A stretch of DNA of 64,000 bases from Dehalococcoidia bacterium (GCA_022827095.1 JAJDTP010000006.1:19514-83513); one strand, 5' to 3'; positions 3,658 through 52,052 are shown, numbered from the stretch's first letter. The notes: a model not told the origin generated them from the letters alone. Translations and numbers: made by a program.

Positions 3658-4266
3658 CTATCCGAGAATCCGTTCGCGGACACCGCAGTCGGCGCAGCGG
3701 GCGCCGTTGGGCAGGCTGATCATCGCGCCGTCGCAGATCGGGCAGGCGGCGTAAGCGGAGGCGCCGGCAGGTTCCGGTTCCGTAGGCGGGGCCTGGTCAC
3801 GGTTCAAGACCAGCACCCACGCCAGGATCGCCAGGCCGACGACTATTGACGAGTCGGCGAGGTTGAACACCGGCCACGGTCCGATGTCGATAAAGTCGGT
3901 GACGTGACCCTGCCAGATGCGGTCCACCAGGTTGCCCAGCGCGCCGCCCAGCATCAGTGCGATGCTGGTTCGCATCAGGAGGCCGGGCCGTTCCTGGGTG
4001 CGGTAGATGTATGCCAGCACCGCGACGCCGACCAGGGAGACGATCAGCAGCGGAATGTTGTTGCCCTGGAACAGTCCGAAGGCGCTACCGGTGTTCTGTA
4101 CGTGGGTGAAGCGGAAGAAACCGTAGGCCGGCCAGGAGTAATGCCACTCCAGGGTTTGGCGCACCACGAACTTGGTAAGCTGGTCCAGCGCGAGAGCCAA
4201 CGCCGCCAGTTGCAGCAGGGTCCAATCCCGATAGATCGGAGTGCGATCTCTCCGCGGCCGGGACAT
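3658..4266 (-). CDS. lspA: Lipoprotein signal peptidase II with a C-terminal CxxC..CxxC extension
   Basis: DQLTK, NTGSAFG, GGALGNLVDR, VTDFID and FNLAD motifs. Lies upstream of rluD, a common arrangement. Confidence 0.92.
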   Translation of the reverse strand: MSRPRRDRTPIYRDWTLLQLAALALALDQLTKFVVRQTLEWHYSWPAYGFFRFTHVQNTGSAFGLFQGNNIPLLIVSLVGVAVLAYIYRTQERPGLLMRTSIALMLGGALGNLVDRIWQGHVTDFIDIGPWPVFNLADSSIVVGLAILAWVLVLNRDQAPPTEPEPAGASAYAACPICDGAMISLPNGARCADCGVRERILG

Positions 4267-6791: not shown

Positions 6792-7721
6792 ATGCTCCGG
6801 CAATCCGCATCGCCCACCGCCGATATCAGCGTAGCCATCGACTCACGCCCGCTGTACGCCGGGGACGCCATAGATGCTGAGGTCCTCGTAACCCCTCATC
6901 TTTCGTTCCAGGCGGCGCTGGGGGTACTCCGGTTGTCGCGGATTGAACTGATGCGGGTGGATTCGGCGCGCGACGCGGTGCCGCAGATGATGCTGCCCAG
7001 CGGACGGGGTCGCCGGAATCCCGGCGGGCCGGCGCATATTGACGAGATATTCGCGGAAGACGTGACGATGGAAGGCGGGGTGCCGCAACGCTATCCGGTA
7101 CGGCTGCGGCTGCCGGACGCGGCGCCGCCCACCGTGAAGGGCAAGTACGCTCGCATCTCGTGGGAGTTGTCGGCGACGATACTGACCAGGGCCGACTGGT
7201 TGCCCACGAATGACGGATGGCTGGCGAATATAGCCCGGGGCCGGGCGGCGCAGTGCCAGCAGGAACTGGTGGTGTTCAGCCGGTCCGACGTTGACCCGAT
7301 GGATGGGTTGCCGTTACTTGATGAGCTGCCGGCCAGCAGGTCCTTTCGCAACGTCACCATGGGCCTGTCGCTGGACGCAGCGAACGCAGCCAACGGCGGA
7401 ACCGTAACGGGCAGCGTCTCGATTGCCGCCCGAACGGCGCTAAAGGCGCGCGAACTGCGCGTCGAGCTGATGCGGTGGGAACGTTCGGGGAGCAAGCAGG
7501 CGCGGGTTATCGAGCACAGCGAGGTGCTGCAGCGTCCGGCGATCCTGGCCGCTGACCAGGAAACCGACTGGGCTTTCCGGCTCACAGTGCCCGACCCCTT
7601 GATGCCCTCGGTGTTGGCCAACCACACCTTCGTCGGCTGGCAGGTGAGGGCGGTCATCGACCGGAAGCTGCGCCCGAACCAATCGGTATCGCAACTGCTG
7701 CACGTGTATACATCGCCCTGA
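6792..7721 (+). CDS. Arrestin-like/SpoOM-type tandem beta-sandwich protein
   Basis: Two similar halves, each ending in an LPxxxPPT/PSV..G..ISW.L.A-type motif (RLPDAAPPTVKGKYARISWELSA and TVPDPLMPSVLANHTFVGWQVRA). Confidence 0.55.
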   Translation: MLRQSASPTADISVAIDSRPLYAGDAIDAEVLVTPHLSFQAALGVLRLSRIELMRVDSARDAVPQMMLPSGRGRRNPGGPAHIDEIFAEDVTMEGGVPQRYPVRLRLPDAAPPTVKGKYARISWELSATILTRADWLPTNDGWLANIARGRAAQCQQELVVFSRSDVDPMDGLPLLDELPASRSFRNVTMGLSLDAANAANGGTVTGSVSIAARTALKARELRVELMRWERSGSKQARVIEHSEVLQRPAILAADQETDWAFRLTVPDPLMPSVLANHTFVGWQVRAVIDRKLRPNQSVSQLLHVYTSP

Positions 7722-13739: not shown

Positions 13740-16100
13740 TCAGTTGGCGCAGAACTGCAAACCAAGGGCGTCGAAGTCGTTGTCCGCAACCCCTTGCAGG
13801 GCAAGCGGGACGCAGCCGGTCAGCTGGTTGCCGGCGAGGCGGCTTATTTCCAAGTTGACCAAGTTCCCCAACTCCGACGGTATCGGGCCGGTCAACTGGT
13901 TGCTATTGAGGTACAACCGCTCCAGGCTGTTAAGGCTGCCCAGCCAGGCAGGAACGGGCCCGGTCAGCTGGTTGCCCCACAGGTATAGACGCGTCAGCTT
14001 GGTGAGGTTCTGCAACTCAGATGGTATGGGCCCGGTCAGCTGGTTCCCGCCCAGGTTCAGGTCATCCAGGTTGGTCAGATTGCCTAGCCAAGTAGGCAAG
14101 TCTCCGGTCAACTGGGTTTCGTTGAGATCAAACCGACGCAGATTGGATAGGTTGCCCAGCCAGATAGGAATAGGTCCGGTCAAATGGTTATCGTTGAGGC
14201 GCAAAGTTTGCAGGTTGGAGAGGTTGCCTAGCCGGGAGGGTATCGGCCCATCCAACTGGTTGCCATTGAGGCGCAACGCTTGCAGGTTGGAGAGGTTGCC
14301 CAGCTGGGACGGTATCGTCCCGGTCAACTCGTTGTTGTTTAGACGCAGGTCGGCTAGGTTGGTGAGGCTGCTTAGGGAAGAGGGTATCTCTCCCCGCAAC
14401 CGGTTGTCGCCAAGTTGCAACCGTTCCAGGTTGTTCAAGTTGCCCAGCCAAGCCGGAATGGAGCCGGTCAGTTGGTTCCCCCACAGGTGTAGGTAGATCA
14501 GATTGGAAAGGCGGCTCAGGTCATCCGGTATTGGTCCTTCAAGGTCGTTGCCGCCGAGGGACAGCGTCTCCAACTTGGAGAGGTTCCCCAGGGAGGGAGG
14601 CAAGATCCCGGTCAATTGATTCCGGCCGAGGGACAGGTTCGTCAGGTTGGTGAGACGCACTAGCTCTGGCGGTATCGTCCCGGTCAACTCGTTGCTGCTT
14701 AGGCGTAGGTCGGTCAGGTTGGAGAGGCTGCCCAGTTGGGATGGTATCTGGCCGGTCAACTGGTTCTCATAAAGGTATAGGAGTTCAAGATTGGAGAGGT
14801 TGCCCAGCGTCGTTGGAATTAGCCCGGTGAGTTGGTTGCGACTGAGGATTAGCCGTTTCAGGTTGTCGAGGTTGCCCAGTTGGGATGGTATTTGGCCGGT
14901 CAACTGGTTCTCATAGAGGTATAGGAGTTCAAGATTGGATAGATTGCCCAGCGTCGTTGGAATCGCCCCGGTCAGTTGGTTGCGGCTGAGGCTGAGCCGT
15001 TTCAATCTGGGAAGTTCCCCCAACTCCGCCGGTATCTCTCCTGTAAATTGGTTGCCGGACAGCCACAGCTCCTCCAGGTTTGACAGTTCGCCGAGCCAAG
15101 CAGGTACAGGGCCAGTCAGTTGGTTTCCCCAAAGGGATAGGTCAGTCAGATTGGGAAGACTGGTGAACTCTCGAGGTATCGGGCCTTGGAGATTGTTCAT
15201 TCTGAGAGCCAATGCGGTAACCTGTCCGTTGGCATCGGTGATGACTCCGTGCCACTCCCGCATTGGCCGGTCACTTAGCCAGTTGGAACTGTCCGTCCAA
15301 TTCGCCCCGCCCGTGGCGTTAAAGATGGTGACCAAGGCCGCTCGGTCTGCAGACGAATCCATGGCCGCGCAACTGCTGCCATACATTTGATCTATGCTTT
15401 GGAGCCACGACTGGAACGTGCTATCGACGGGCGCGCAGAGTGCCGGGTTATTGTAAAAAGCGAGATACTCCAGCGCAGTAAGCCGAATCATATCTTGCGG
15501 TAGTGTACCGGTAAGTTCGTTCCTCCACAGGCGTAGTTCCTTCAAGTTAGTGAGGTTGCCCAGCTCCGGCGGTATCGCACCCTGAAGGTTGTTTTCTCCC
15601 ATATCTAGTTCGGTGACCCGGCCATTGTCGTCGGTGGTTACGCCGTGCCACTCCCCAATGGGTTGGTCGCTGAGCCATCCGTCGTTGTTCGTCCAGTTGG
15701 GGCCGTCCGTGGCGTTGTAGAGGGCGACCAGCACATCCCGGTCGGTTGCTGACGGCGCGGGAGCAGTGGCGGCTGGGGTGGTTGGCGCGGGAGCAGTGGC
15801 GGCTGGGGTGGTTGGCGCGGGAGCAGTGGCGGCTGGGGTGGTTGGCGCGGGAGCAGTGGCGGCTGGGGTGGTTGGCGTGGGAGCAGTGGCGGCCGGAGTG
15901 GTTGGCGTGGGAGCAGTGGCGGCCGGAGTGGTTGGCGTGGGAGCAGTGGCGGCCGGAGTGGTTGGCACAGAGGCTTCAGGTTCGTTGCCTCCGCAAGCGA
16001 CGACCACGGTCATCAGCAGGGCAACGGCGGCAACGGCCAGGATCGTCCGCCACGACAGAGGTGCTATAGCCAACGGGCCGGATCTGCTTGATTTGCGCAT
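13740..16100 (-). CDS. Secreted lipoprotein with roughly 20 plant-type 24-aa leucine-rich repeats, two N-cap domains and a Pro/Thr/Ala linker
   Basis: Lipobox VVVAC-GG. Repeats follow LxxLxLxxNQLTGxIPxxLGxLxx. The cap DRxxLVxxxNATxGxNWTxxxxWLSDxPxxEWHGVxTDxNGxVT occurs twice. Confidence 0.92.
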   Translation of the reverse strand: MRKSSRSGPLAIAPLSWRTILAVAAVALLMTVVVACGGNEPEASVPTTPAATAPTPTTPAATAPTPTTPAATAPTPTTPAATAPAPTTPAATAPAPTTPAATAPAPTTPAATAPAPSATDRDVLVALYNATDGPNWTNNDGWLSDQPIGEWHGVTTDDNGRVTELDMGENNLQGAIPPELGNLTNLKELRLWRNELTGTLPQDMIRLTALEYLAFYNNPALCAPVDSTFQSWLQSIDQMYGSSCAAMDSSADRAALVTIFNATGGANWTDSSNWLSDRPMREWHGVITDANGQVTALALRMNNLQGPIPREFTSLPNLTDLSLWGNQLTGPVPAWLGELSNLEELWLSGNQFTGEIPAELGELPRLKRLSLSRNQLTGAIPTTLGNLSNLELLYLYENQLTGQIPSQLGNLDNLKRLILSRNQLTGLIPTTLGNLSNLELLYLYENQLTGQIPSQLGSLSNLTDLRLSSNELTGTIPPELVRLTNLTNLSLGRNQLTGILPPSLGNLSKLETLSLGGNDLEGPIPDDLSRLSNLIYLHLWGNQLTGSIPAWLGNLNNLERLQLGDNRLRGEIPSSLSSLTNLADLRLNNNELTGTIPSQLGNLSNLQALRLNGNQLDGPIPSRLGNLSNLQTLRLNDNHLTGPIPIWLGNLSNLRRFDLNETQLTGDLPTWLGNLTNLDDLNLGGNQLTGPIPSELQNLTKLTRLYLWGNQLTGPVPAWLGSLNSLERLYLNSNQLTGPIPSELGNLVNLEISRLAGNQLTGCVPLALQGVADNDFDALGLQFCAN
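14729..15004. repeat. Near-identical tandem duplication with 144-bp period (two LRR units) inside the LRR gene
   Basis: TGCCCAGTTGGGATGGTATYTGGCCGGTCAACTGGTTCTCATA starts at both 14729 and 14873. Confidence 0.85.
15751..15966. repeat. 30-bp tandem repeat x7 encoding PTTPAATAP(T/A)
   Basis: Unit GTTGGCGYGGGAGCAGTGGCGGCYGGRGTG: four copies of one variant followed by three of another. Confidence 0.95.
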
Positions 16101-31796: not shown

Positions 31797-33161
31797 ATGC
31801 CGGTGTTCCTCCACTGGTGCCTTGCTGTCGCGGCGGTAGTTGTGCTGCTGGTCGCGGTGGCGTGCGCGGCAAATCCGCGTGACAACGCGAATAATGAAGC
31901 TCCTATGCATATCAACCGCATTGCATACATCGACAACGACGGCCAACTGGTAACCTCTGATCCTGACGGTTCGGGACGCAGCCTGCTGACGACCGGCGCG
32001 GTTGCTCGCGCTGGCGGCATCCTGGCCCAGCCCCAGCGCCGTGAGGCCATGTACAGCTGGCCCGTGTGGTCTCCGGATGCGTCCCGTATCGCCGTTTCTC
32101 TCCTGCGGGGCGAATCTCCCAGCGACGCTCAGATCAGCCTGCACACGCTGGAATCTTCCACCGGCGTCGGCGGAGCGGCCTTTGTGAACGAGGCTCCGCT
32201 GACCATCGCGGAGGGTACCCCTCACTATGTCCAATGGTCTCCCGACGGGCAAAAATTGGGAATCACGGCGGCAACCCCGGAGGGGCTGACCCTGTTCCTC
32301 GTGGATGCCACCGCCGCACCCCAGTCCGGGCCGCCCCGCGAACCATTGGCGGTGCAACGTGGCGCGCCGCTGTATTTCGACTGGGCTCCCGACAGCGCTT
32401 CGCTGGCGGTGCACAGCAACGAGGACGTGCTGCTGGTTCGGCCGGACTACGACGCCCGGCAGTTCAGTGTCCAGCCATTGGCCCAATCACGTTCGTTCCG
32501 GACGCCGGCCTGGTCTCCCGACGGCAGCCGGCTGGCCTGGTCCGCCCCTGGGGGAGATAGCGAAGCGCTGTGGGTGGGACGACCAGACCAAGCCGATGAC
32601 GCCGCCCTCAGGCTGGCGGAAGTCGAAGGCGCGTGCGCGTTCCTGTGGTCGGCCAATGGCGACGTTATCGCCGTGGCGGATCGGCAGATCGCCGGTTCAC
32701 CTGCCTACCGCCGTCTGCGCCTGTTGGCCGTCGACGGCAGCGTCGAGCGGACCGTCAAGGAGGACGATTGGGTTCTCGGATTCTTTTGGGAGCCCCGGGG
32801 AGATCGCCTGGCCTGGGTGGCCCTGAACCCTGAAGAGCGCACCATGGAGTGGAGAATCGCGGAGGGTTTGACCTCGGATGACGCCGGCGACGAGACCGAT
32901 GCCGCTCTCGGTGGGTTCCGATTCTCGCCCAGCGGGGAAACGTTCCTGATGCTGGCGTTCTTCGACCAGTACGCCCGGAGCCACTCGCCGTGGGCTCCGG
33001 ACGGATCGGCCCTGGTCGTAACCGGAACGCAACAGTACTTGTCCGAGCGGCGCAATGGCAGCAGCGGTGGCGGCTCCCGCGTGTACGTCGTGGAAACCGG
33101 CGGCGGCGGGCAACTGCACGACATCGCCAACGGCAGCATGGCAGTTTGGTCATCCCAATAG
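31797..33161 (+). CDS. TolB-like beta-propeller lipoprotein (PD40-type repeats)
   Basis: Hydrophobic leader ending LVAVAC. Repeated PxWSPDG-type motifs (PVWSPDA, VQWSPDG, FDWAPDS, PAWSPDG, SPWAPDG). Start uncertain (31689-31797). Confidence 0.78.
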   Translation: MPVFLHWCLAVAAVVVLLVAVACAANPRDNANNEAPMHINRIAYIDNDGQLVTSDPDGSGRSLLTTGAVARAGGILAQPQRREAMYSWPVWSPDASRIAVSLLRGESPSDAQISLHTLESSTGVGGAAFVNEAPLTIAEGTPHYVQWSPDGQKLGITAATPEGLTLFLVDATAAPQSGPPREPLAVQRGAPLYFDWAPDSASLAVHSNEDVLLVRPDYDARQFSVQPLAQSRSFRTPAWSPDGSRLAWSAPGGDSEALWVGRPDQADDAALRLAEVEGACAFLWSANGDVIAVADRQIAGSPAYRRLRLLAVDGSVERTVKEDDWVLGFFWEPRGDRLAWVALNPEERTMEWRIAEGLTSDDAGDETDAALGGFRFSPSGETFLMLAFFDQYARSHSPWAPDGSALVVTGTQQYLSERRNGSSGGGSRVYVVETGGGGQLHDIANGSMAVWSSQ

Positions 33162-33197
33162 GCCGGCTCAGACGTATCCACTTCAGGACAGCGAAAA

Positions 33198-33297
33198 GTC
33201 AGAAGCAGCAGGATTATCAGGATTGAATTCGTACCATCCAAAGTACCTGTGTCCTGCCCATCGCGCCAATTCGGTGCATTCTCAGATTCTGGCGACG
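33198..33297. repeat. Degenerate copy of the CAGGAT inverted-repeat element
   Basis: GTCAGAA...GGATTATCAGGATTG matches the reverse complement of the right arm at 2607-2650. Ends in GATTCTGGC. Confidence 0.55.
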
Positions 33298-33362
33298 ATG
33301 ATGTAAAAATTATCCCGGGGGTACAAATACAAATGTTGCGTGCGAACGCCATTCGCTTAATC

Positions 33363-34202
33363 ATGGAACGCCGTTGGCATTGGTGGGGCATTACGATTGC
33401 GTTGTGCGTCGGTCTGCTGGCGGCGGCGTGCGGCGGCTCTGACCCTCCGGCCGCTGCGTCAGAACCGGCCGCCGCTCCCGCTGCCCAGCCGGCTGCCGGA
33501 CAGCCAACGCCCACCCCCACACCGCCGCCGGATCCGGCGGCCCTGCTGGTGGAGACGGCCGAGAACCTCCGGCAGGCGCAGTCTTTCAACTTTGTGGTCG
33601 AGCACGAAGCCGGCAGCATCTACGTGAGTACGGTTCAGGCCAAGGCCACTGTTGCCAAAGGCGGCTGGAACGCCGAGCAGGGCGCGCAAATGACCGTTGA
33701 CGCCTACCTCGTTTCCGGCCCCGATGCCCCTACTGAGGACGGCACCTACGTCGAACTGCGCATGGCGGTAACTCCCGACAGCTATTTCCTTACCGACCCC
33801 CTGTCCGGCTACTGGACCAAGCGCCCCTTTTCCAGCATTTCCATCCCCATCACGGAGCTGAACGACATTGTCGCTGTTGCCGCCGACTCTATCGACAACC
33901 CCGTCCTCGCCGGGGAGGAAGAAATCGACGGCAAAAGCGCCTACAAGATTACCGGCGACGCTCCGGCGACCGTAATGGACTGGTTGCTGCTTTTCCCAGT
34001 GGAAGGCCAGCGGGTAGATGTGGAAGTCTGGACGGATACCGAGGAGAAAATTCTTCGCCAAGCCCGCATCATAGGCCCCATCGGGGAATTCGACGACGCC
34101 GATACCGTGCGTAAAGTAACGGTGAGCGACTACAATGCCACCGTTGAGATTGAAATCCCCGGGCCCGACGACTATCTTGACCTCTCCAATATCCAGCAGT
34201 AA
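33363..34202 (+). CDS. LppX/LprAFG-family (LolA-like fold) lipoprotein
   Basis: Lipobox LLAAAC-GG, a Pro/Ala linker, then a beta-rich domain with YFLTDPLSGYW, GEEEIDGKSAYKITG, VEVWTD and VTVSDYNATVEIEIP, the typical pattern for this family. Confidence 0.72.
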   Translation: MERRWHWWGITIALCVGLLAAACGGSDPPAAASEPAAAPAAQPAAGQPTPTPTPPPDPAALLVETAENLRQAQSFNFVVEHEAGSIYVSTVQAKATVAKGGWNAEQGAQMTVDAYLVSGPDAPTEDGTYVELRMAVTPDSYFLTDPLSGYWTKRPFSSISIPITELNDIVAVAADSIDNPVLAGEEEIDGKSAYKITGDAPATVMDWLLLFPVEGQRVDVEVWTDTEEKILRQARIIGPIGEFDDADTVRKVTVSDYNATVEIEIPGPDDYLDLSNIQQ

Positions 34203-34244
34203 CCGGCGACCCTTTCCCACTCCCGCCGTCCCTGTACCGTACCT

Positions 34245-35804
34245 ATGTTAAGCCGACTGCAACGGCACGGGCTCCCTCCCTGGGTGATGGTAGCGGCCAT
34301 CGCCACCGGCACCTTTATCACCGCCCTGGACCAGACGGTCGTGGTAACGGCGCTGCCGGCGGTAATGGCTGATTTGAAAATCCAGCTGGCCCGGTTGGAG
34401 GCGGTCATCTGGGTGGTGACCGCCTACCTGCTGGGCTACACCGTGGCGATGCCGTTGCTGGGCCGGTTGGCCGACGTTTATGGCTATACCCGCATCTACC
34501 AGTACTCCCTTCTGGTTTTCTGTGTCGGAACAACTCTGGTCGCCCTGTCCGGGGAATGGGGTTGGCTGAACGACCAGATTGACCCGCTGGACCAGATAGT
34601 CATTGCGCGGGTGGTGCAGGCCATCGGTGGGGGCGGCACGGTGCCCATCAGCCTGGCCATCGCGGCGGCGCTGGTCTCGCCGGAGAAACGGGGGCTGGCC
34701 CTGGGCATCGTCGCCGGCGCCGCCGAGGCGGGCAGTATGCTGGGGCCGGCCTACGGCGGCGCCATCATCGAAATCTGGAGCTGGCGAGGCATATTCTGGC
34801 TCAACGTGCCCCAGGCCGCCATTATTGCCGCAGCCCTGCTGTTCCTGCCCAACCAGCGGTTCGCCGACGCCCGCATGGATTACCGCGGCGCAATCGTGCT
34901 CACGATTGCCCTGGTGCTGCTCTCCCTGGCGGTAGCCCACGAGGGCCTGTTCCGGCTGTCGTCCTGGACGCCTTACTGGTTGCTGGTGGGCTTTTTGGTC
35001 AGCACAGGAGCGTTGGTGCTGCTGCAACGGCGGACGGTGCAGCCGCTGTTGTCCGGCGCCCTGTTCCGGGCCTGGGCTTTCGTGATGGCCAACATCGCCC
35101 AGTTGCTGGTGGGGATTGCCCTCATAGTCGCCATGGCTGCCATGGTGATTATGGCCAACACGGTGATGGACGTGCCGGAGCGTCCGGTGGACTCGCTGAC
35201 CGCGGCGCTGTGGCTACTGCGGATGACGGGGACGATCCCGATATTCTCCGTGGTCGGCGGCCTGCTGCTGCGCTGGATTGACGCTCGCTGGGTCACCGTA
35301 CCGGGGCTGGCGCTGATTGCCATCGGAATGTTCCAGGTGGGCGGCTGGCCACTGCTGGGACTGCCCGGCTGGCCAGTGGGAATCAGCGACCCGAAGCTGA
35401 CCATTGACATGGTAATCGCCGGCGTCGGGTTCGGCCTGGTCATCGCCCCGCTGATGCACCGGGCGATCCTGTCGGCCCCGTTGGATTACCGGGCGGTATC
35501 GGCGTCAATGATCGTGGTGGCGCGGATGCTGGGGATGACGCTGGGAATGGCCGCATTGTCGGCATGGGGTGTCAACGAACTGCTGACCATCTTTGACGAA
35601 ACGGTGGCCCTGCCGTCCGCCGAGCGGCGGGAAGTGATCAGTCACGCCAGCCTGGACCTGTTCCACAGCTTCTTCCGCGCCGCCGGCATCATCGCCATCC
35701 TGGCCATCGTCCCGGCAACGCTGATGCGCGCCAGCCCGATGGAACGGGCGGAGCTGACCGGAACAACCCCCGCCGCGGAAATGGCCGCGGGCGACGGGTC
35801 GTAG
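34245..35804 (+). CDS. 14-TM MFS transporter resembling mycobacterial P55/Rv1410c
   Basis: ALDQTVVVT, WVVTAYLLGYTVAMPLLGRLAD, EAGSMLGPAYG, WRGIFWLNVP, AGVGFGLVIAPL and VVARMLGMTLGMAALSAWG. Confidence 0.85.
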   Translation: MLSRLQRHGLPPWVMVAAIATGTFITALDQTVVVTALPAVMADLKIQLARLEAVIWVVTAYLLGYTVAMPLLGRLADVYGYTRIYQYSLLVFCVGTTLVALSGEWGWLNDQIDPLDQIVIARVVQAIGGGGTVPISLAIAAALVSPEKRGLALGIVAGAAEAGSMLGPAYGGAIIEIWSWRGIFWLNVPQAAIIAAALLFLPNQRFADARMDYRGAIVLTIALVLLSLAVAHEGLFRLSSWTPYWLLVGFLVSTGALVLLQRRTVQPLLSGALFRAWAFVMANIAQLLVGIALIVAMAAMVIMANTVMDVPERPVDSLTAALWLLRMTGTIPIFSVVGGLLLRWIDARWVTVPGLALIAIGMFQVGGWPLLGLPGWPVGISDPKLTIDMVIAGVGFGLVIAPLMHRAILSAPLDYRAVSASMIVVARMLGMTLGMAALSAWGVNELLTIFDETVALPSAERREVISHASLDLFHSFFRAAGIIAILAIVPATLMRASPMERAELTGTTPAAEMAAGDGS

Positions 35805-35869
35805 CCCCGCGAGTACACCTGCGCCCCAGACTGCCCGCATTGCACCTGACCCAACAGGAGGTGACCAAC

Positions 35870-36664
35870 ATGATCCGAATGGGCGCAACAGGTTCCCCGG
35901 CACACCTCGACCTTTGCCGCGCGCTGGAAACGGTGTTCCGCCGCAACGGCGTTGAGTTCGATTGGGTGCTCTATTCCGGCTACGACGAGATGGTGGACGC
36001 CTTTACGCGCGGGGAAATTAACCTGGCGTGGAACGGCCCGCTGTCTCACGTCAAGATGCGCCGCGCCCTGCCTGATGGAGCGCCCGTGCTGGCTGTGCGC
36101 GATGTCGACATCGGTTTCACCACCAGGTTTATCACCCGCGCCGATTCCTCGATTGACACCGTGGAAGACCTGCCCGGTACTCGCTTCGCTTTCGCCGCCC
36201 GGGACTCGGTCGAAGCCGGTCTCCTGCCCGTCTATTTCCTCAAGCAGATGGGCATCCATCCGAACCGCGCGCTGGCATCCGCCGATTTCTATGACCAGCG
36301 CGACCAGCAGCACAGTTCCGACCAGGTTGACGTGGCCCTCCAGGTCTTGAACCGTGCTTACGACGCGGGAGCCATCAGTGCCCGGTCATTTGAAACCCTG
36401 AGCGAGCGGCATGGCATCAACACCGACGAACTGAAAGTGTTCTGGAGCAGCCCCGGCTACAGCCACTGCTGTTTCACCGCCCGACCCGAAGTGGATCCTG
36501 CTGAGGCCGCTCAGGTGACGGCGGCGTTGGTGTCGGTGGACGATAGCGACGAGGTCGGGCGGGCGGTGCTCAAGGCCGAAGCCTGCGACCGGATAATGCC
36601 CGGTATCGAAGACGGATGGGACCTGGTCGAGGCGGCAGCGTTACAGGAAGGGCTGATCTGGTAA
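35870..36664 (+). CDS. PhnD/SsuA-type substrate-binding-fold protein without signal peptide
   Basis: LYSGYDEMVDA, INLAWNGPL, DLPGTRFAFAARDS..G.LP, DAGAI and PGYSHCCFT. AGGAGG RBS before ATG 35870. Confidence 0.75.
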   Translation: MIRMGATGSPAHLDLCRALETVFRRNGVEFDWVLYSGYDEMVDAFTRGEINLAWNGPLSHVKMRRALPDGAPVLAVRDVDIGFTTRFITRADSSIDTVEDLPGTRFAFAARDSVEAGLLPVYFLKQMGIHPNRALASADFYDQRDQQHSSDQVDVALQVLNRAYDAGAISARSFETLSERHGINTDELKVFWSSPGYSHCCFTARPEVDPAEAAQVTAALVSVDDSDEVGRAVLKAEACDRIMPGIEDGWDLVEAAALQEGLIW

Positions 36665-36732
36665 CCGTGTTGCCCCGGCTATATCCCTGCGCTATGCTGA
36701 TCGCACGGCACAGTTCAGAGGGGGATGTCGGG

Positions 36733-37095
36733 ATGCAAACTCAAAATCAACTGAAAACCGCTCAGGACTACCTGGACGCTGCCGACCGGGAGTTTGAGAA
36801 CGGCGACGCGCTGGCGGCTACTGAAAACCTGCGGGCGGCAATGATCCATGCTCTCAAGACCGTCGCCTCCAAAAAGGGCTGGGATTATGACGGCGATGAC
36901 CTCTACCCGGTGGTGGAGAAAATTGCCAAAATGGATGAGCAGGTCGGCGATATTCTGCTGAGTTCATACGCTGCTGTAGAAGGCTATACCGAGAAGGTTC
37001 ACTATGGCCGTTTCGTCTGGGAGGACGGCGACAGTCATCGTATGCTTCGGGTGGTCCGGGAGTTCGTCAGCGAAGTGCAGCGTCTGACGGAGTGA
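36733..37095 (+). CDS. PaREP1/HEPN-like small helical protein, copy A
   Basis: AQDYLDAADREFENGD..AATENL.AAM.HALK.VA.KKGW...VREFV pattern. Confidence 0.65.
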   Translation: MQTQNQLKTAQDYLDAADREFENGDALAATENLRAAMIHALKTVASKKGWDYDGDDLYPVVEKIAKMDEQVGDILLSSYAAVEGYTEKVHYGRFVWEDGDSHRMLRVVREFVSEVQRLTE

Positions 37096-37099
37096 CCCG

Positions 37100-37486
37100 A
37101 TGACTACTCCAACGTTGCCGCTGCGAGAACACGTTGAGCTAGCGCCTGAATTGCTGGACGAAGCGGATGTTGAGTTTGCCGGCGGTAAAACGCTGAAAGG
37201 GGCGGAAATGCTATGGGGCGCGGTCGCTCACGCTTTGATAGCCGTCGCCTTGCGAAACGGATGGCCTTACGATAGTCACGGCGCCCTGAAGAGGGTTGCC
37301 AAGCGACTGCCTAACGTTCCCGGCGCGTGCCATTGGCTCACCGAATTTGACGTTATGGAACGGTTTCACAACCATTTCTACCACGGCCAAATGAGTGACG
37401 GCAGGATAGCCAGATACCGGCCAAGAGCGCGCGGTTTCGTCGCCCGCCTCCTTGCCGTGGCCAACGAACCCCGTTTGAGGAGCTGA
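37100..37486 (+). CDS. PaREP1/HEPN-like small helical protein, copy B
   Basis: ELLDEADVEFAGG...GAEMLWGAVAHALIAVA..NGW..DSH and FHNHFYHG. Confidence 0.72.
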   Translation: MTTPTLPLREHVELAPELLDEADVEFAGGKTLKGAEMLWGAVAHALIAVALRNGWPYDSHGALKRVAKRLPNVPGACHWLTEFDVMERFHNHFYHGQMSDGRIARYRPRARGFVARLLAVANEPRLRS

Positions 37487-38437: not shown

Positions 38438-39352
38438 ATGATGGCAGACGAAATGATCGTCTATTTCAACGGTGAAATGACCCCCGGCAGCCAGGTTGCG
38501 CTGTCAATTTACGACCGCGGCTTCCTGTACGGTGACGCGGTGTTCGACGCGACCCGCACCTTTGGCGGCAAGACCTTCCGGCTGGACCGCCACATCGACC
38601 GCCTTTACAACTCCCTCCGCTACTTGCGCATCGACGTTGGCATGAGCAAGGAGGAGATGACGGACGCCACGGAGGCCGTGGTTGCTCACAATCACCCGAT
38701 GCTTCCGGCCGGCCAGGACATGTGGGTCATGCAGCGGATCAGTCGCGGTGTGGAAGGAGCGGACCGGGCCGGGGGTAATCGACCCACCATCATCATCGAG
38801 AGCCATGCCATACCCTTCGCCGCCCGCGCTCCGCTGTACCGGGACGGCGCCCGCATCAGCACCCCGTCGGTGGCCCGCATCCCTCCCCGGTTCCTCAGTC
38901 CCCGCGCCAAGACCCACAACTACCTCAATCTCATCATGGGCGAGTTGGAGGTGCATGGCGAAGACCCGGACGCGTGGGCCATCCTGCTGGACGAATTCGG
39001 CAACCTCACCGAGGGTCGCGGCAGCAACGTCTTCCTGGTCAAGGACGGCGCGGTGATGACGCCCAAGTCCCAGTACGTGCTGGAAGGTGTAACCCGCAAC
39101 CAGACCCTGGAACTGGCCGACGGTTTGGGTCTCGCTACCGCCGAATGCGACATAGACCTGTACGATGCTTACACCGCCGATGAAGCGTTCCTGACCTCCA
39201 CCAGCCTGTGCATCTGCCCGGTGTCCGCGGTCAACGGTGCCACAGTTGGCGACGGAAGCGTCCCGGGCCCGGTGACCGAGCGCCTGATGACCGCGTTCAG
39301 CGATCTCGTTGGCATGGACTTCGCCGAACAGTACCTGGCGCATTTGGGGTAA
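38438..39352 (+). CDS. PLP-dependent aminotransferase class IV (branched-chain/D-amino acid type)
   Basis: DRGFLYGDAVFD, HIDRL, AKTHNYL (PLP Lys), EGRGSNVF, LEGVTR and ADEAFLTST. Confidence 0.9.
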   Translation: MMADEMIVYFNGEMTPGSQVALSIYDRGFLYGDAVFDATRTFGGKTFRLDRHIDRLYNSLRYLRIDVGMSKEEMTDATEAVVAHNHPMLPAGQDMWVMQRISRGVEGADRAGGNRPTIIIESHAIPFAARAPLYRDGARISTPSVARIPPRFLSPRAKTHNYLNLIMGELEVHGEDPDAWAILLDEFGNLTEGRGSNVFLVKDGAVMTPKSQYVLEGVTRNQTLELADGLGLATAECDIDLYDAYTADEAFLTSTSLCICPVSAVNGATVGDGSVPGPVTERLMTAFSDLVGMDFAEQYLAHLG

Positions 39353-40189
39353 TCTGTGCATTCTGGTACAAACCGACCCTGCCTGTCCTGTGTCGGCTGG
39401 GAGGCATCATGACTAGCAGATTTACCGCCACCCCGGCGCCGGCGACGCCTCCGGCCATCGCCAAGTTCCCTGAGTTTCCGCCCCGTGCCGACATGATGAA
39501 CAGCCGTCATCTTCACGACCAGGGACACCAGCCCGCTCTGCGCCGGCATCTGGGCAACCCGGACACTACTCTGGTGCTGAGCGAAGTTCCCGTATCCTGG
39601 GATGTGCCCCGGAGCCGGGCCGGCGTGAGGATTCCCGACCTGATCATCGCTTTCAATGTTCGGCGCGCCCATATCTTGGCCCAGGACGGTTACGCCATCA
39701 ATGAACAGGGCAAGCCGCCCGATTTCGTGCTGGAAATCGCTTCGGACACCACCGCCGCCAACGATGAAAACGCCAAGTGGTTTGATTACGCCAACTTCGG
39801 GGTGACCGAGTGCTGGCTTTTCGACCCGGACTGGGGCAAACGCTACGCCGCTGGGCTGATTGGCTGGACGCTGGTCAACGGGCGCTATGAGCCTATTTCC
39901 ATACACCGGCACGCGGCGGATATGTACTATGGCGACAGCCGGGTTCTGGGGTTGCAGGTATGCTGGGAACATGGGCAACTCCGCTGGTATGACCCGGCGG
40001 GCCAACGTTACCTGGACACCTTCGATAGCCTGGCCGACGAGAGGGACGCCGCCGTGGCCGAGGCACAACGGCTGCGGCATGAAATCGAGCGGCTGCGGGA
40101 GGACCGGGAGTAGCAAAGCGTCGAAGCAGGCGATGGAGCGGAGGATGGCGGCGTTCAGCGGTCTCGTCGGCATGGACTTCGCCGAACAG
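39293..40189 (+). repeat. Direct repeat of the aminotransferase 3' end flanking the Uma2 gene (39293-39331 and 40151-40189)
   Basis: GCGTTCAGCGRTCTCGTYGGCATGGACTTCGCCGAACAG is 37/39 identical between copies, with weaker similarity extending on both sides. Confidence 0.9.
39409..40113 (+). CDS. Uma2-family (DUF820) PD-(D/E)xK endonuclease-like protein
   Basis: IPDLIIAF, GKPPDFVLEIAS, K..DYA..GVTECWLFDP, LRWYDP and a coiled-coil tail. GGAGG RBS. Confidence 0.85.
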   Translation: MTSRFTATPAPATPPAIAKFPEFPPRADMMNSRHLHDQGHQPALRRHLGNPDTTLVLSEVPVSWDVPRSRAGVRIPDLIIAFNVRRAHILAQDGYAINEQGKPPDFVLEIASDTTAANDENAKWFDYANFGVTECWLFDPDWGKRYAAGLIGWTLVNGRYEPISIHRHAADMYYGDSRVLGLQVCWEHGQLRWYDPAGQRYLDTFDSLADERDAAVAEAQRLRHEIERLREDRE

Positions 40190-41309: not shown

Positions 41310-42461
41310 ATGCGCGAGTTTGACGCAATAGTGATCGGTGTCGGCGGCATGGGGAGTGCCGCCGTCTATCACCTGGCCCGTCGCGGCTGGAAGGTGCTGG
41401 GGCTGGAGCAGTACGACATCCCCAACGAGATGGGCTCCTCCCACGGCGTCAGCCGGATGATCCGCCTGGCCTACCACGAGGACCCATCCTATGTGCCGTT
41501 GCTCTACCGGGCCTACGAACTCTGGCATCAACTGGAGAACGTGGCCGGGGAAAAACTGCTGGTTACCACCGGCTGCGTGCGGGGAGGCGTCGGGGCCAGC
41601 CAACTGCTTGAGGGATCTCTGGAAACGGTGACGCAGCATCACCTGCCGTACCGGATGCTCAGCGGCCCGGAGGTGAACCGGGAGTGGCCGGGTTATCAAC
41701 TGCCCGAAGAAGCCGAAATGCTCTACGAGCAGCAGGGCGGTTTCGTGCTTTCCGAGCGGTGCATCGTGGGGCACGTTTCGGCGGCCCTGGAAATCGGCGC
41801 CGAGGTACACGGCCGCGAGGCCGCGCTCAGCTGGGAACCCACCGCCGGCGGGGGCGTGGTCGTGACAACCGACAAAGATACCTACTCGGCGCGGCGCCTG
41901 GTGGTCACCGCCGGAGCCTGGGCCGGCAAGGTGGCGCCCGAAGTCGCCGCCCACGCCGTTCCGGAGCGGCAGGTGCTGGGATGGTTTGCACCCTATCGCC
42001 CGGAGCTTTTCCGCCCAGAGAATTTCCCATGCTTCGGCATGGAGGTTGAGGAAGGTCGTTTCTACGGCTTCCCGTCCTACGGGATACCCGGCTTCAAGCT
42101 GGGCATGTTCAACCACTTCCGCGAGCAGGTGGACCCCGACACCATGGACCGGGAACCCAACGCCCGGGACGAGGCCGCACTCCGGCAGTTCACCGAGCGT
42201 TACTTCCCGGAAGCAGCCGGCCCGACCCTCGCGCTGAAGACCTGCATGTTCACCAACACCCCTGACGAGCACTTCATCATCGACACGCTACCCGATCATC
42301 CTCAGGTCTCCGTGGCCGCCGGGTTCTCCGGGCACGGGTTCAAATTCACCAGCGTGATAGGCGAAATTATGGCCGACCTGGCGGAGCATGGCCAGACTGA
42401 CCACGACATCGGGCTTTTCCGGCTGGGCCGGTTTTCCCAACTCGTCTCTGACGGCGCATAG
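41310..42461 (+). CDS. solA: Monomeric sarcosine oxidase / N-methyltryptophan oxidase family flavoenzyme
   Basis: VIGVGGMGS, GSSHGVSRMIR, TAGAW, CMFTNTPDEHFIID (Cys for covalent flavin) and GFSGHGFKF. Confidence 0.85.
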   Translation: MREFDAIVIGVGGMGSAAVYHLARRGWKVLGLEQYDIPNEMGSSHGVSRMIRLAYHEDPSYVPLLYRAYELWHQLENVAGEKLLVTTGCVRGGVGASQLLEGSLETVTQHHLPYRMLSGPEVNREWPGYQLPEEAEMLYEQQGGFVLSERCIVGHVSAALEIGAEVHGREAALSWEPTAGGGVVVTTDKDTYSARRLVVTAGAWAGKVAPEVAAHAVPERQVLGWFAPYRPELFRPENFPCFGMEVEEGRFYGFPSYGIPGFKLGMFNHFREQVDPDTMDREPNARDEAALRQFTERYFPEAAGPTLALKTCMFTNTPDEHFIIDTLPDHPQVSVAAGFSGHGFKFTSVIGEIMADLAEHGQTDHDIGLFRLGRFSQLVSDGA

Positions 42462-42474
42462 CCAGGACGGCGAG

Positions 42475-43275
42475 ATGGAAAACCCCTTTGCCAACCCGTT
42501 TCCGGGCATGAACCCCTATCTGGAATCCAGGCGGATCTGGCCGGAGGTCCACAACAATATCATCCACGAGATGTTCCGTTTTCTGCGCCGCACTTTGCCG
42601 TTCCGGTACACGGTCATCATGGACGAGCGTGTCGGCATCGGCAACGACCCCTCTCGCGACGCTCCGGCGCGGTACGCCGAACCTGACCTTTCGATCAGAG
42701 GCGGCGGTGTGCATGAGCGTGGCGCCGCTACCTACCTGGCGGAAGGCCGAGTAACCGCCAGGCTCCCCCTGGATGACGAAACAACTCGGGAGATGTTCAT
42801 CACCATTGGCGAACGGGACCACGAAGACCCGGTAACCATTGTGGAGTTGCTGTCGCCCAGCAACAAGATCTTAAGTGGACACGGGCGCAGCCAGTATCTG
42901 GACAAGCGCGAGCGAGTGATTTTCAGCCCCACACACCTGGTGGAGATTGACCTCATTCGCCGCGGCCGGCCCATGCCGGTGGAAGGTTACGATGGCAACG
43001 CGCCTTACCGGCATCTGATCAGCCGATCGCAGACGCGCCCGGAAGTGGACTTGTATCCGTTCCGCCTGCAAACTCCCATCCCTGACGTTCCGGTACCGTT
43101 GCTGGAGGGCGACGAAGATGCGGTGGTTCCGCTGGGCGTATTGGTGGATGACATGTACGAGCAGGATTACTACTCCAACTACGTCGACTACAACAGCGAC
43201 CCGGAAGGAATCTTGTCCGAAGAAGACCGACAATGGATCGACCAACTGTTGCGGGAGAAAGGGTTCCGCCGCTGA
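42475..43275 (+). CDS. DUF4058-family protein (PD-(D/E)xK-like)
   Basis: NPFPGMNPYLE..WPEVH, EPD, IVELLSPSNK, YLDKR, HLVEIDLIR.G and PVPL. Confidence 0.85.
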   Translation: MENPFANPFPGMNPYLESRRIWPEVHNNIIHEMFRFLRRTLPFRYTVIMDERVGIGNDPSRDAPARYAEPDLSIRGGGVHERGAATYLAEGRVTARLPLDDETTREMFITIGERDHEDPVTIVELLSPSNKILSGHGRSQYLDKRERVIFSPTHLVEIDLIRRGRPMPVEGYDGNAPYRHLISRSQTRPEVDLYPFRLQTPIPDVPVPLLEGDEDAVVPLGVLVDDMYEQDYYSNYVDYNSDPEGILSEEDRQWIDQLLREKGFRR

Positions 43276-49106: not shown

Positions 49107-50219
<1,113 letters not shown>

Positions 50220-50272
50220 CCGCCGCCACGTTCCGGCTTTACTGCTCAGGGGTCGAATGAGGGGAGTCGGCT

Positions 50273-51427
50273 ATGAAAATAGCCATGGTCTCCCCTTACG
50301 ATTTCGGGTGGCCGGGAGGCGTCAACGCCCACGTGACCCAGCTGTCGGCCGAACTGCGGCAGCGTGGGCACGAAGTGACGGTTATCGCACCGCAAACGTC
50401 GGCCGGTGACGAACGGCGGTGCGGGCATTCCGACGGTTTTATTCCCATGGGCCGGTCCGTTCCGCTGTCAGCGGGTGGTTCCACAGCCCGGGTGACCCTT
50501 TCGTGGTGGTTGTGGCCCCGGATCAGACAGCTGATGGCTCGGGAGCAATTCGATCTGGTGCACGTACACGAGCCTTTGGCGCCCATTCTGCCCCTGATGA
50601 TACTTCAGCATTCGAGGGCGGTGAACGTGGGGACATTTCACGCGTTTTCGGACAAGCAGCAGTTGTACCGGTGGTCGCGTTTTGCGCTGCGGTCGTGGCA
50701 CAGTCGATTGCACGGCCGGATTGCAGTTTCCGAGGCGGCGCGGACATTTGTGGCGCCGCATTTCCCGCAGCGGGCGTACCGCGTGATCCCCAACGGTATC
50801 GACTACCAACGTTTTGCCGGCGCCATGCCTTTCCCGGAGTTGCGAGACGGCAAGAAGAACGTCCTGTTTGTCGGGCGCAAGGACGAACGAAAGGGCCTGC
50901 GTTACCTGTTGGAGGCGTGCCTGCTCTTGCTCGAACGCAGGCGCGACGTTCGTCTGATAGTCGTGGGTCCTGGGGAACCGGACCGGATGTGTTCGTCTTT
51001 GATAAGCGCGATAAACGATTCGGGTCGGGACCTGTTGAGACTGGCGGGGTCGGTTTCCGATGACGACCTGCCCCGCTATTACGCCAGCGCCGATGTCTTT
51101 TGCAGCCCGGCCACCGGAGGAGAGAGTTTCGGGATAGTGTTGTTGGAAGCGATGGCCGCCGGCGCTCCGGTGGTCGCGTCGGATATTGACGGGTATCGCG
51201 ACGTGGTGACCGGCCAAATGAATGGACTGCTCGTGTCGCCGCGCGAACCTTCGGCCATCGCCGACGCCATCGCCCGCTTGATCGATAACCCCGACCTGGC
51301 CAAACGATTGTCAGGAGGCGGCAAACAAGTGGCGCACGACCACCGCTGGCAACACGTGGCGGCGGAAGTCGAAGACTATTACCAATATTGCATTGAGGAG
51401 GCCAACCACGGTGGCAATGCCCGGTAG
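50273..51427 (+). CDS. GT4 glycosyltransferase resembling phosphatidylinositol mannosyltransferase PimA
   Basis: MKIAMVSPY..PGGV..HV, HVHEP, GTFH, IPNGID, ERKG and GGESFGIVLLEAMAAG. Confidence 0.8.
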   Translation: MKIAMVSPYDFGWPGGVNAHVTQLSAELRQRGHEVTVIAPQTSAGDERRCGHSDGFIPMGRSVPLSAGGSTARVTLSWWLWPRIRQLMAREQFDLVHVHEPLAPILPLMILQHSRAVNVGTFHAFSDKQQLYRWSRFALRSWHSRLHGRIAVSEAARTFVAPHFPQRAYRVIPNGIDYQRFAGAMPFPELRDGKKNVLFVGRKDERKGLRYLLEACLLLLERRRDVRLIVVGPGEPDRMCSSLISAINDSGRDLLRLAGSVSDDDLPRYYASADVFCSPATGGESFGIVLLEAMAAGAPVVASDIDGYRDVVTGQMNGLLVSPREPSAIADAIARLIDNPDLAKRLSGGGKQVAHDHRWQHVAAEVEDYYQYCIEEANHGGNAR

Positions 51428-52052
51428 AGAGGAACTGCGCGCGGCAATGCTGCGCTACGTAGAGTTGCCCGGGGCGCGTGCTCTGCACGCGGTAGGACTG
51501 ACTCCCAACGCGATAACCATATTCGGTTTCGTGGTGTGCGTGGCCGGGGCGGCATTGGTTGCCCTGGGTTGGCCCCTGTACGGCGGGATCGTGTTCCTGG
51601 CCGGAAGCATTCTGGATCTGTTCGACGGCGGGCTGGCGCGTCTCACGGGCCGGGCTTCCCCGTTCGGCGCCCTGCTCGACTCCGTCTTCGACCGGTTGGG
51701 AGAGGCTGCGCTATTCGTCGGGTTGGGGCTGTATTACCTGCTGTCGGATTTGTCCGCCACGTTCATGATCGTGAGCGTTCTTTCGGTCTTGTGCGGGCTG
51801 GTGTTCTCCCAGGGCGTCTCCTACTTGCGCGCCCGCGGCGAGGGCCTGGGCGCCTTCACCAGGTCCGGCATCATGACCCGGACCGAGCGCGTGGCGATCC
51901 TTGGCATCGGACTGATCGCCGAGGGGTTGGCTCCCGTCCCGATCATGGTATGGGTGCTGTGGGTGATCGCCGCGGTGTCCTGCTTCACCCTATTCCAGCG
52001 GATGTTCACCATACGGGGCATCCTGGAACGCCAGGCGGAGGAAAACGGTTAG
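51411..52052 (+). CDS. CDP-alcohol phosphatidyltransferase (phosphatidylinositol-phosphate synthase type)
   Basis: TPNAIT, DLFDGGLAR..G..SPFGALLDSVFDR, SYLRARGE and RTER. Confidence 0.88.
   Translation: MAMPGREELRAAMLRYVELPGARALHAVGLTPNAITIFGFVVCVAGAALVALGWPLYGGIVFLAGSILDLFDGGLARLTGRASPFGALLDSVFDRLGEAALFVGLGLYYLLSDLSATFMIVSVLSVLCGLVFSQGVSYLRARGEGLGAFTRSGIMTRTERVAILGIGLIAEGLAPVPIMVWVLWVIAAVSCFTLFQRMFTIRGILERQAEENG

Follow-up and report, generated by a model that had tools for sequence, protein, structure and literature searches.

An LprG-Rv1410/P55-type lipoprotein and transporter gene pair in a Dehalococcoidia bacterium, and its wide distribution in Chloroflexota

A gene pair from a Dehalococcoidia bacterium, encoding an LprG-like lipoprotein and an Rv1410/P55-type DHA2 MFS transporter, is a true relative of the mycobacterial LprG-Rv1410/P55 pair. 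It lies within a stretch of 64,000 nucleotides, referred to below as the window. LprG-Rv1410 is studied as a system of the mycobacterial envelope and of virulence. As the two-gene unit was found to be common across Chloroflexota, the pair of the window is regarded as an ordinary member of this known system, which has an unexpectedly wide distribution. It probably functions as a unit of the LprG-Rv1410/P55 kind, in which a membrane lipid is handed over to a tethered carrier in a proton-driven manner. For the mycobacterial field, such units provide non-pathogenic and very distant homologues for the comparison of mechanisms.

The lipoprotein gene (33363..34202, 279 residues) and the MFS gene (34245..35804, 519 residues, 14 TM helices; MFS_1 E-value 8.3e-36) are both on the plus strand. 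The stop codon of the former ends at 34202 and the ATG of the latter is at 34245, which confirms the spacing of 42 bp given in the initial annotation. The third plus-strand ORF described there, encoding a PD40 β-propeller putative lipoprotein (31797..33161, the ORF also being open from 31689; Pfam PD40 E-value 6.6e-9), is present as well. A scan of the locus for promoters and terminators gave results at chance level and is uninformative on the existence of an operon. The window also contains lspA, the gene of the lipoprotein signal peptidase.

The lipoprotein ORF, taken from 33249 to 34202, matches the LppX_LprAFG family (PF07161) with a modest score of 36.1 bits (E-value 7.8e-9), above the cut-off of 24 bits. 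Translation likely starts at the ATG at 33333 or 33363, with the GTG at 33249 as an alternative. The N-terminus comprises a signal peptide, a lipobox (...GLLAAAC) and a Pro/Ala-rich linker, followed by a LolA-like domain (residues ~55–279). The lipobox was read by eye from its pattern, and C23 is taken to be its cysteine; this residue is at least 90% conserved in 128 homologues (alignment A1). When the lipoprotein sequence alone was searched against the PDB, only a weak match to LprF was obtained (E-value 0.11). The profile built from the 128 homologues matched LprG with an E-value of 9.5e-22 (80.6 bits), followed by LprF (4.4e-18) and LppX (1.8e-9). An AlphaFold model was obtained with a mean pLDDT of 88.1. 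Its best Foldseek matches are the LprG entries 3mh9, 3mha and 4zra, with TM-scores (target) of 0.75–0.78; the top nine matches are all LprG, LprF or LppX, and LolA and RseB proteins come after. This proximity of the model to LprG bears out a LolA-like fold. As in LprG (Rv1411c) and its paralogues LprF, LppX and LprA (PF07161), a lipobox is combined with a LolA-like half-barrel. The best fold matches include LprG entries with bound PIM and with triacylglyceride, and the gene is also directly upstream of that of an MFS. The protein differs from LprG by its sequence, only 17–20% identical in the structural alignment, and by its longer Pro/Ala-rich linker of ~30 residues.

The MFS is closest to MHAS2168, a homologue of Rv1410 (PDB 8pnl), with an E-value of 1.1e-50 and 176 bits in the PDB sequence search, compared with 55–61 bits for QacA, EfpA and EmrB. 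The identity with MHAS2168 is ~30% over almost the full length. The four MFS motifs quoted in the initial annotation are present and align residue for residue with MHAS2168, and the homology of the pair to LprG-P55, which had been proposed from these motifs and the gene order, is upheld for both proteins. The AlphaFold model of the MFS (pLDDT 90.7, pTM 0.90) displays 14 TM helices, with two linker helices (213–231 and 242–263) between TM6 and TM7, that is, the architecture of 12 core helices plus TMA and TMB. Foldseek returned 8pnl first (E-values 5e-22 to 8e-22), with TM-scores nearly matched by other DHA2 pumps.

Residues D29, R122, Q125, E161, N187 and R427 are present in the MFS. E161 and R427, carried by model helices 146–177 and 413–453, align with the ion lock formed by a glutamate of TM5 and an arginine of TM11 (E147/R417 in Rv1410, E157/R426 in MHAS2168). 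D29 in TM1 corresponds to D22 of Rv1410 and is accompanied by its partners R122, Q125 and N187, a feature that is unspecific, since the Asp and the Arg are found in most other DHA2 rows of the alignment. D22, E147 and R417 (Rv1410 numbering) are required for function, according to Remm et al. (2023, PMC10576003). The conservation of D29, E161 and R427 therefore indicates that residues required for the function of Rv1410 are kept in the MFS of the window.

In the model, helices 413–453 and 458–492, connected by a loop of four residues, form a periplasmic extension of TM11 and TM12. The TM11 motif is separated from the hydrophobic part of TM12 by 35 residues, with 33–48 in 37 Chloroflexota rows and 44 in a mycobacterial-type anchor pair (L133), a spacing that is not discriminating by length alone, as it ranges from 13 to 74 in other DHA2 rows. 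DSSP assigned only single bridge residues in the model, near positions 368 and 373 in the TM9–TM10 loop. The likeness to MHAS2168/Rv1410 (8pnl) thus comprises the 14-helix DHA2 fold, the Glu-Arg ion lock, the TM1 Asp with its Arg/Gln/Asn network, the extended TM11 and TM12, and the LprG-type gene upstream. A difference lies in the host, which belongs to the Dehalococcoidia (Chloroflexota) and is without sign of a classical outer membrane.

It is unlikely that the MFS is a DHA2 pump for the efflux of drugs or xenobiotics, with the lipoprotein as an accessory factor and lipids not being the physiological substrate. In NCBIfam, the MFS is assigned to the DHA2 EmrB subfamily alone (TIGR00711), with 126 bits, below the cut-off of 230, and has weak matches to many resistance pumps; a relative is labelled 'EmrB/QacA subfamily drug resistance transporter' by one source. 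EmrB, QacA and EfpA share the 14-helix fold (TM-score target 0.79–0.84), the TM1 Asp and the TM4 Arg. In early work, Rv1410 itself was taken for a drug efflux pump, and its overexpression led to resistance to aminoglycosides and tetracycline (PMC6519032). However, the ion-lock Glu occurs in 47 of the 53 Rv1410-like rows (34/37 from Chloroflexota, 13/16 from Actinomycetota) and in none of the 15 other DHA2 rows. The position is occupied by Ile in E. coli EmrB and by other residues in the remaining non-paired DHA2 rows. The ion pair was also reported to be absent from 46 characterised MFS transporters by Remm et al. (PMC10576003). An obligate upstream partner with a lipid-carrier fold further argues against a drug pump, and the neighbouring ORFs that were scanned had no Pfam match to a partner of the membrane-fusion or TolC type. 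None of EmrB, QacA and EfpA is known to have a LolA-like lipoprotein partner.

The phylogenetic tree was built with 68 MFS rows, 53 Rv1410-like and 15 other DHA2. After removal of four long rows, the Rv1410-like group (53 rows) was split from the 11 other DHA2 rows with an SH-aLRT support of 99; the same split was recovered with all 68 rows, with a support of only 50. For 40 rows of the Rv1410-like group, pairing with the lipoprotein was confirmed. The MFS of the window groups with lipoprotein-paired MFS, in a clade of 23 rows all from Chloroflexota, and not beside the mycobacterial rows. In the anchor pair L133, of the mycobacterial type, the MFS scores 646 bits against 8pnl and the lipoprotein 336 bits against LprG. 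The bit score to 8pnl, the ion-lock Glu and the tree all place the MFS apart from the generic EmrB/QacA pumps, grouping with which had been named in the initial annotation as evidence against its proposal.

The complex of the lipoprotein with the MFS was predicted with a score of 0.43, the best of three controls reaching 0.00. Among 157 solved complexes, 116 score at least this high, as do 2 of 215 mismatched pairs; only 18 of the 157, and both mismatched pairs, do so with a score of 0.60 or less. At least 93% of the contacts agree between runs, and the pLDDT of the partner is at least 77. The predicted complex weakly supports a partnership of the two proteins.

In the Chloroflexota sample, PF07161 was detected in 158 of 401 genomes (~4/10), a larger share than in the Actinomycetota sample (36/301), with the Rv1410-type pump nearly always adjoining. 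Among the matches listed, an MFS is encoded directly downstream in 103 of 150 PF07161 rows. The genes were paired in all 20 loci that were fetched and in a further five out of five, in 12/12 loci of named Chloroflexus genomes and in 77/80 loci of Acidimicrobiia. Conservation of the pair, which had been asked for, is therefore found across Chloroflexota and Acidimicrobiia, where the MFS usually adjoins the lipoprotein on its downstream side. Fusions of the lipoprotein with the MFS, suspected from long open frames, were rejected, as separate adjacent ORFs were present in the five loci fetched. Conversely, 63 loci were fetched by their MFS (L016, L018–L079); 60 had a candidate upstream ORF, and 59 of these were scanned (L030 was left out). 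PF07161 was found in the upstream ORF of only two (L016 and L019). The 27–34% identical matches from Acidimicrobiales, Streptosporangiaceae and others are consequently generic DHA2 pumps, and were used as outgroups. A third partner or a cargo-making enzyme was searched for among 76 neighbour ORFs of 20 loci, and no Pfam family occurred in more than two loci. The label 'LppX_LprAFG lipoprotein [Chloroflexota bacterium]' is already in use in databases; within the literature collection searched, no paper was found that names LprG or Rv1410 together with Chloroflex*.

From the homology to the mycobacterial system we infer lipid transport, its direction and its possible cargo as follows. The MFS would reside in the cytoplasmic membrane, where the proton gradient would drive the extraction of a hydrophobic, probably multi-acylated lipid. 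The lipid would enter the small hydrophobic central cavity of the MFS, with D29 in TM1 and the ion lock E161-R427 providing the proton coupling. Extended on the periplasmic side, TM11 and TM12 may then direct the lipid upward, to the pocket of the lipoprotein. With its acylated cysteine and the Pro/Ala-rich linker, the lipoprotein would be anchored on the outer side of this membrane, from where it would carry the lipid to the envelope beyond or present it there. Among the possible cargoes, one candidate is a phosphatidylinositol-based glycolipid.

Such a glycolipid could plausibly originate from a cluster of ino1, pimA and phosphatidylinositol-phosphate (PIP) synthase genes, which the initial annotation had reported and which is indeed present ~13 kb downstream of the pair (49107–52052, plus strand). 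The ino1 product (49107–50219; Inos-1-P_synth) matches TIGR03450 with 500 bits, under the curated cut-off of 638. The PimA-like GT4 (50273–51427) matches the PimA structures 4n9w and 2gej over the full length with 210 bits, the next match having 78 bits. The PIP synthase (51393–52052; CDP-OH_P_transf) matches NF045883 with 138 bits, under the curated cut-off of 170. PimA-like genes are present in 290 of the 401 Chloroflexota genomes. The co-occurrence of pimA with the lipoprotein, which had been suggested as a check, was not observed: both are present in 120 genomes, the lipoprotein only in 38, PimA only in 170 and neither in 73, so that there is no association (odds ratio 1.36, p 0.21). A search of the genome for a WS/DGAT triacylglycerol synthase gave no match and is uninformative, as the controls were silent too.

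The proposal of an uncharacterised outer lipid layer supplied by the module, with PI mannosides from the ino1-pimA-PIP synthase cluster as cargo, is improbable. LprG was solved with PIM bound (title of entry 3mha), and ino1, the PimA homologue and a PIP synthase are encoded in the window. In PMC13319060, Chloroflexus aggregans and Ca. Viridilinea mediisalina are described as diderm-like in cryo-tomograms, with diderm marker genes missing, and a lipid-containing outer layer in some Chloroflexota is treated as an open question. The consistent pairing in Chloroflexus loci fits such a layer. Against this proposal stand the lack of association between PimA-like genes and PF07161, and the 38 lipoprotein-only genomes, which include G231, whose pair has 76–96% identical named relatives in Chloroflexus. 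In addition, no match to Omp85/BamA, LpxC or GT87 (PimE/MptA type) was found in the genome of the window, which comes from an uncultured lineage and is 97.65% complete. Acidimicrobiia, which are not known to have a mycomembrane or an outer lipid layer, likewise often carry the pair. As the pair occurs in about four out of ten sampled Chloroflexota genomes and in Acidimicrobiia, the module alone does not imply a second lipid layer, and the outer layer that the initial annotation saw hinted at by it is not supported.

The pair nevertheless provides a concrete gene target for the question of the Chloroflexota outer layers. There is a small chance that the LprG-MFS pair arose not in mycobacteria but as an old module of Chloroflexota and Actinomycetota exporting acylated lipids or PI-glycolipids from the cytoplasmic membrane. 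In Chloroflexota it would then build the lipid part of the non-canonical outer layers observed in cryo-tomograms, among others in Chloroflexus, where every named genome has the pair. From this module the system of the mycomembrane would have specialised later.

The β-propeller gene ends ~170–200 bases upstream of the pair. Its product had been called a TolB-like lipoprotein; the PD40 repeats are confirmed, but identity with TolB is rejected, as the TIGR02800 equivalog scores 29 bits for a cut-off of 343 and the best PDB match to TolB (E-value 1e-3) covers only ~35 residues. No Tol-Pal family was matched by Pfam in the ORFs scanned beside the propeller. Read from M37 (31797), the N-terminus contains ...LLVAVAC, which presumably fits the lipobox pattern. 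The propeller is a neighbour of the lipoprotein-MFS module and a putative lipoprotein: it was found in none of 21 other loci (pairs L019 and L111–L130), and is encoded upstream of the pair in all 16 close relatives (L001–L016, 37–95% identity).

The LppX_LprAFG lipoprotein gene and the major facilitator superfamily (MFS) gene downstream of it are a genuine, well-conserved pair of the LprG-Rv1410 type, Rv1410 (P55) being the mycobacterial MFS partner of LprG. As described in the initial annotation, three open reading frames (ORFs) follow one another on the + strand of the window. The first (31689 or 31797-33161) encodes a β-propeller protein matching Pfam PD40, the N-terminus of which resembles a lipoprotein signal if the start is at 31797. 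The second (33249-34202) matches PF07161 (LppX_LprAFG) with 36.1 bits, the cut-off being 24; its probable starts are the ATG codons at 33333 or 33363, and the signal peptide ends in LLAAAC. The third (34245-35804) encodes a protein of 519 residues matching the MFS in Pfam, and its ATG is separated from the lipoprotein stop codon by 42 bases. Cobalamin genes are found by family matches upstream of the three ORFs on the opposite strand, and a phosphonate-binding or Rv1680-like binding protein downstream of the MFS gene (35840-36664). The window also encodes the lipoprotein signal peptidase II LspA (3658-4266, - strand; Peptidase_A8, E 1.4e-36), which agrees with the processing of two predicted lipoproteins. 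The assignment to Chloroflexota was borne out by the closest relatives of the MFS protein (L001-L015, 83-98% identical), which by title come from metagenome-assembled genomes of Dehalococcoidia or Chloroflexi.

Among solved structures, the best match of the MFS protein is 8pnl, the 'putative triacylglyceride transporter' MHAS2168, a homologue of Rv1410 (E 1.1e-50, 176 bits, residues 16-459); QacA, EfpA and EmrB come next with 55-61 bits. The four motifs that had been likened to those of Rv1410 align with MHAS2168. Remm et al. 2023 (PMC10576003) describe the Rv1410 family as DHA2 proteins that carry a TMA/TMB hairpin and in which TM11 and TM12 extend roughly 20 Å into the periplasm. In their account, a glutamate and an arginine (E147 and R417 in Rv1410) act as an ion lock that shuts a very hydrophobic cavity, and an aspartate of TM1 (D22) makes bonds to Arg, Gln and Asn residues. 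The Glu-Arg pair is reported there to be missing from 46 characterised MFS transporters. The aligned equivalents in the window protein are D29, R122, Q125, E161, N187 and R427. Within the Rv1410-like group of a 68-row alignment, 34 of 37 Chloroflexota rows and 13 of 16 Actinomycetota rows carry the ion-lock glutamate; none of the 15 remaining DHA2 rows does. The TM1 aspartate and the arginine residues are general among DHA2 pumps. The six Rv1410-like rows without the glutamate have a threonine in its place and keep the arginine. These rows (L111, L112 and L128 from Chloroflexota; L143, L144 and L146 of Acidimicrobiia type) fall in one subclade that includes the Chloroflexus-type rows, and proton coupling may be different in this subclade of lipoprotein-paired transporters.

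The AlphaFold model of the MFS protein, obtained with an alignment of 142 rows, consists of 14 helices (pLDDT 90.7, pTM 0.90). TM11 (413-453) and TM12 (458-492) are joined by four residues, and as modelled must form a helical hairpin reaching past the membrane; a TM9-TM10 hairpin is a mere hint. A Foldseek search with the model returned 8pnl first (E 5e-22 to 8e-22, TM-score 0.83-0.86). The fold by itself is not discriminating, since other DHA2 pumps (E about 1e-15) reach similar TM-scores.

Quick trees were built to place the protein relative to other DHA2 pumps. The 68 rows comprised an Rv1410-like set, consisting of the window protein, three close relatives, 13 database homologues of unseen gene context, and 20 Chloroflexota and 16 Actinomycetota proteins with a verified upstream lipoprotein gene (one of the latter, L140, from genome G489 flagged unpublished, also enters the residue counts), and an outgroup of E. 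coli EmrB, three paralogues from the source genome and 11 unpaired DHA2 proteins. One branch gathers all 53 Rv1410-like rows, but its support is held down to 50 by three very long rows that join nearby; when four long rows (L018, L030, L034, L046) are omitted, the same split has an SH-aLRT of 99. The window MFS protein thus stands on the Rv1410-like side rather than with generic drug pumps, as had been anticipated. The clade is anchored by L133, an actinobacterial locus with, by sequence, a mycobacterial-type pair (646 bits between its MFS protein and 8pnl, 336 bits between its lipoprotein and LprG of M. tuberculosis). The window protein belongs to an all-Chloroflexota clade of 23 rows (support 98). 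Rows of the two phyla interleave, with four label changes, so that transfers or an ancient paralogy form part of their history. The source genome encodes a single Rv1410-like transporter, that of the window; its three other DHA2 paralogues are closer to EmrB.

Searched as a single sequence, the lipoprotein finds only LprF in the PDB, weakly. A profile from 128 homologues matches LprG (E 9.5e-22), LprF (4.4e-18) and LppX (1.8e-9). In the model (pLDDT 88.1), about 55 residues of disordered linker precede a sheet-plus-helices domain (residues about 55-279). The fold is LolA-like: the best matches are LprG entries (TM-score on the target 0.75-0.78), including by title those with PIM (3mha) and triacylglyceride (4zra) bound, followed by LprF, LppX and, further down, LolA-family proteins. 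The complex predicted between the MFS protein and the lipoprotein domain scored 0.43, the best of three controls 0.00, with at least 93% contact agreement between runs and a partner pLDDT of at least 77. Of 157 solved complexes, 116 reach the mark for such predictions, as do 2 of 215 mismatched pairs; at 0.60 or under, only 18 of the 157 reach it, together with both mismatches. The prediction thus weakly backs a contact between the two proteins. At one locus (L178:6446-9475, - strand), the MFS gene is immediately preceded by an open frame of 1009 residues, the final 236 of which form the LprG-like domain; this frame may encode a multidomain lipoprotein or have been called too long.

The interest of the pair lies in its wide spread in Chloroflexota. 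PF07161 is found in 158 of 401 sampled genomes of this phylum (153 over the cut-off), in 36 of 301 sampled Actinomycetota genomes (32 over the cut-off) and in 0 of 14 control genomes. Among the Chloroflexota matches listed, an MFS gene lies directly downstream on the same strand for at least 103 of 150, in at least 98 of 137 genomes; 103 is a lower bound, as 47 lipoprotein and 192 MFS matches lie beyond those listed. All 20 Chloroflexota loci fetched are paired, including three that seemed unpaired at first, in one of which the lipoprotein had been missed by Pfam. Five further loci (5/5) carry the two genes as separate ORFs. With a more sensitive profile, the lipoprotein is detected in 118 of 301 genomes of the window's class and 10 of 17 of its order. 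The strongest Chloroflexota matches have Chloroflexus species as named relatives, and the MFS gene is downstream in 12 of 12 such loci. In Actinomycetota, it is downstream in 16 of 31 fetched loci, among which fall all matches of at least 65 bits. In the Acidimicrobiia/Ilumatobacter clade, the lipoprotein gene precedes the MFS gene in 77 of 80 loci, the other three having no upstream DNA. The genome counts for PF07161 and for PimA (below) include genomes flagged unpublished (G038, G145, G173, G227, G272, G344, G489), and no claim depends solely on these. Relatives carry the database names 'LppX_LprAFG lipoprotein [Chloroflexota bacterium]' and 'MFS transporter'. A full-text search found no literature linking LprG or Rv1410 with Chloroflex*, and the papers containing 'LprAFG' are mycobacterial by title.

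The PD40 gene precedes the pair in 16 of 16 close relatives and 0 of 21 other pairs, and the binding-protein gene follows it in only 5 of the 16. Among 76 neighbouring ORFs from 20 loci, no Pfam family recurs in more than two loci. What is conserved is therefore the gene pair. In a relative with 98% identity (L014:5001-6561), two overlapping ORFs of 345 and 263 residues take the place of a single MFS gene, owing either to a frameshift or to an assembly error. In the Chloroflexota family f42, the paired MFS ORF has 944-956 residues (L113:2084-4918 and L114:2019-4889, both - strand), the extra C-terminal stretch of roughly 340-430 residues having no Pfam match; a 391-residue ORF, also without Pfam match, follows the MFS gene in L113, L114 and L121. 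Unpaired actinobacterial DHA2 pumps (L038, L040, L044, L047, L048, L052 and about 30 further loci) are 27-30% identical to the window protein and are preceded by an ORF of 170-220 residues without Pfam match; this ORF may not be a real gene, or may encode a partner not described so far.

Regarding the cargo, family and PDB matches identify inositol-3-phosphate synthase (ino1), a PimA-like GT4 glycosyltransferase and phosphatidylinositol-phosphate synthase at 49107-52052, on the + strand. PimA enzymes are the best solved relatives of the GT4 protein (210 bits over the full length; next match 78 bits). With these three genes, the organism can probably make phosphatidylinositol (PI) and a PI-mannoside. 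PimA-like genes, 44-51% identical over their full length, were detected in 290 of the 401 Chloroflexota genomes sampled, among them all 9 genomes of one Dehalococcoidia family with small genomes (f5), so that the ability to make PI-mannosides may be common across the phylum. The one publication joining Chloroflexota, phosphatidylinositol and mannoside concerns actinobacteria, judging by title and the start of the abstract. The initial annotation proposed that this cluster could supply the cargo of the pair, and an association with pimA was looked for across Chloroflexota. It was not found: 120 genomes have both PF07161 and PimA-like genes, 38 only the former, 170 only the latter and 73 neither (odds ratio 1.36, p 0.21, related genomes not being independent). 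PIM is hypothesized as a cargo. No match to WS/DGAT was obtained in the source genome, the controls being silent too.

The initial annotation also saw in the pair the hint of an outer lipid layer. Omp85, LpxC and GT87 have no match in the source genome (97.65% complete), and the controls did match. Chloroflexota are described as considered monoderm and devoid of BAM and LPS genes (PMC13319060), and diderm-like tomograms of Chloroflexus aggregans and Ca. Viridilinea mediisalina are reported in the same source. These tomograms keep alive, for the phylum, the idea that the pair builds a lipid-containing part of non-canonical outer layers; nothing here ties it to the source cell, for which an outer lipid layer is a hypothesis that the pair does not by itself imply.

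Other genes were observed in the window. A protein of 786 residues consisting nearly entirely of leucine-rich repeats (LRR_8, E 1.6e-57) is encoded at 13740-16100 (- strand) in a stretch of lower GC content (0.58-0.59), and an Arrestin_N match lies in the frame 6792-7721. At 36616-37486 (+ strand), the gene of a HEPN-domain protein (159 residues) is followed after 5 bases by an ORF of 128 residues without Pfam match. Uma2-family and DUF4058 genes are present at 39208-40113 and 42388-43275.
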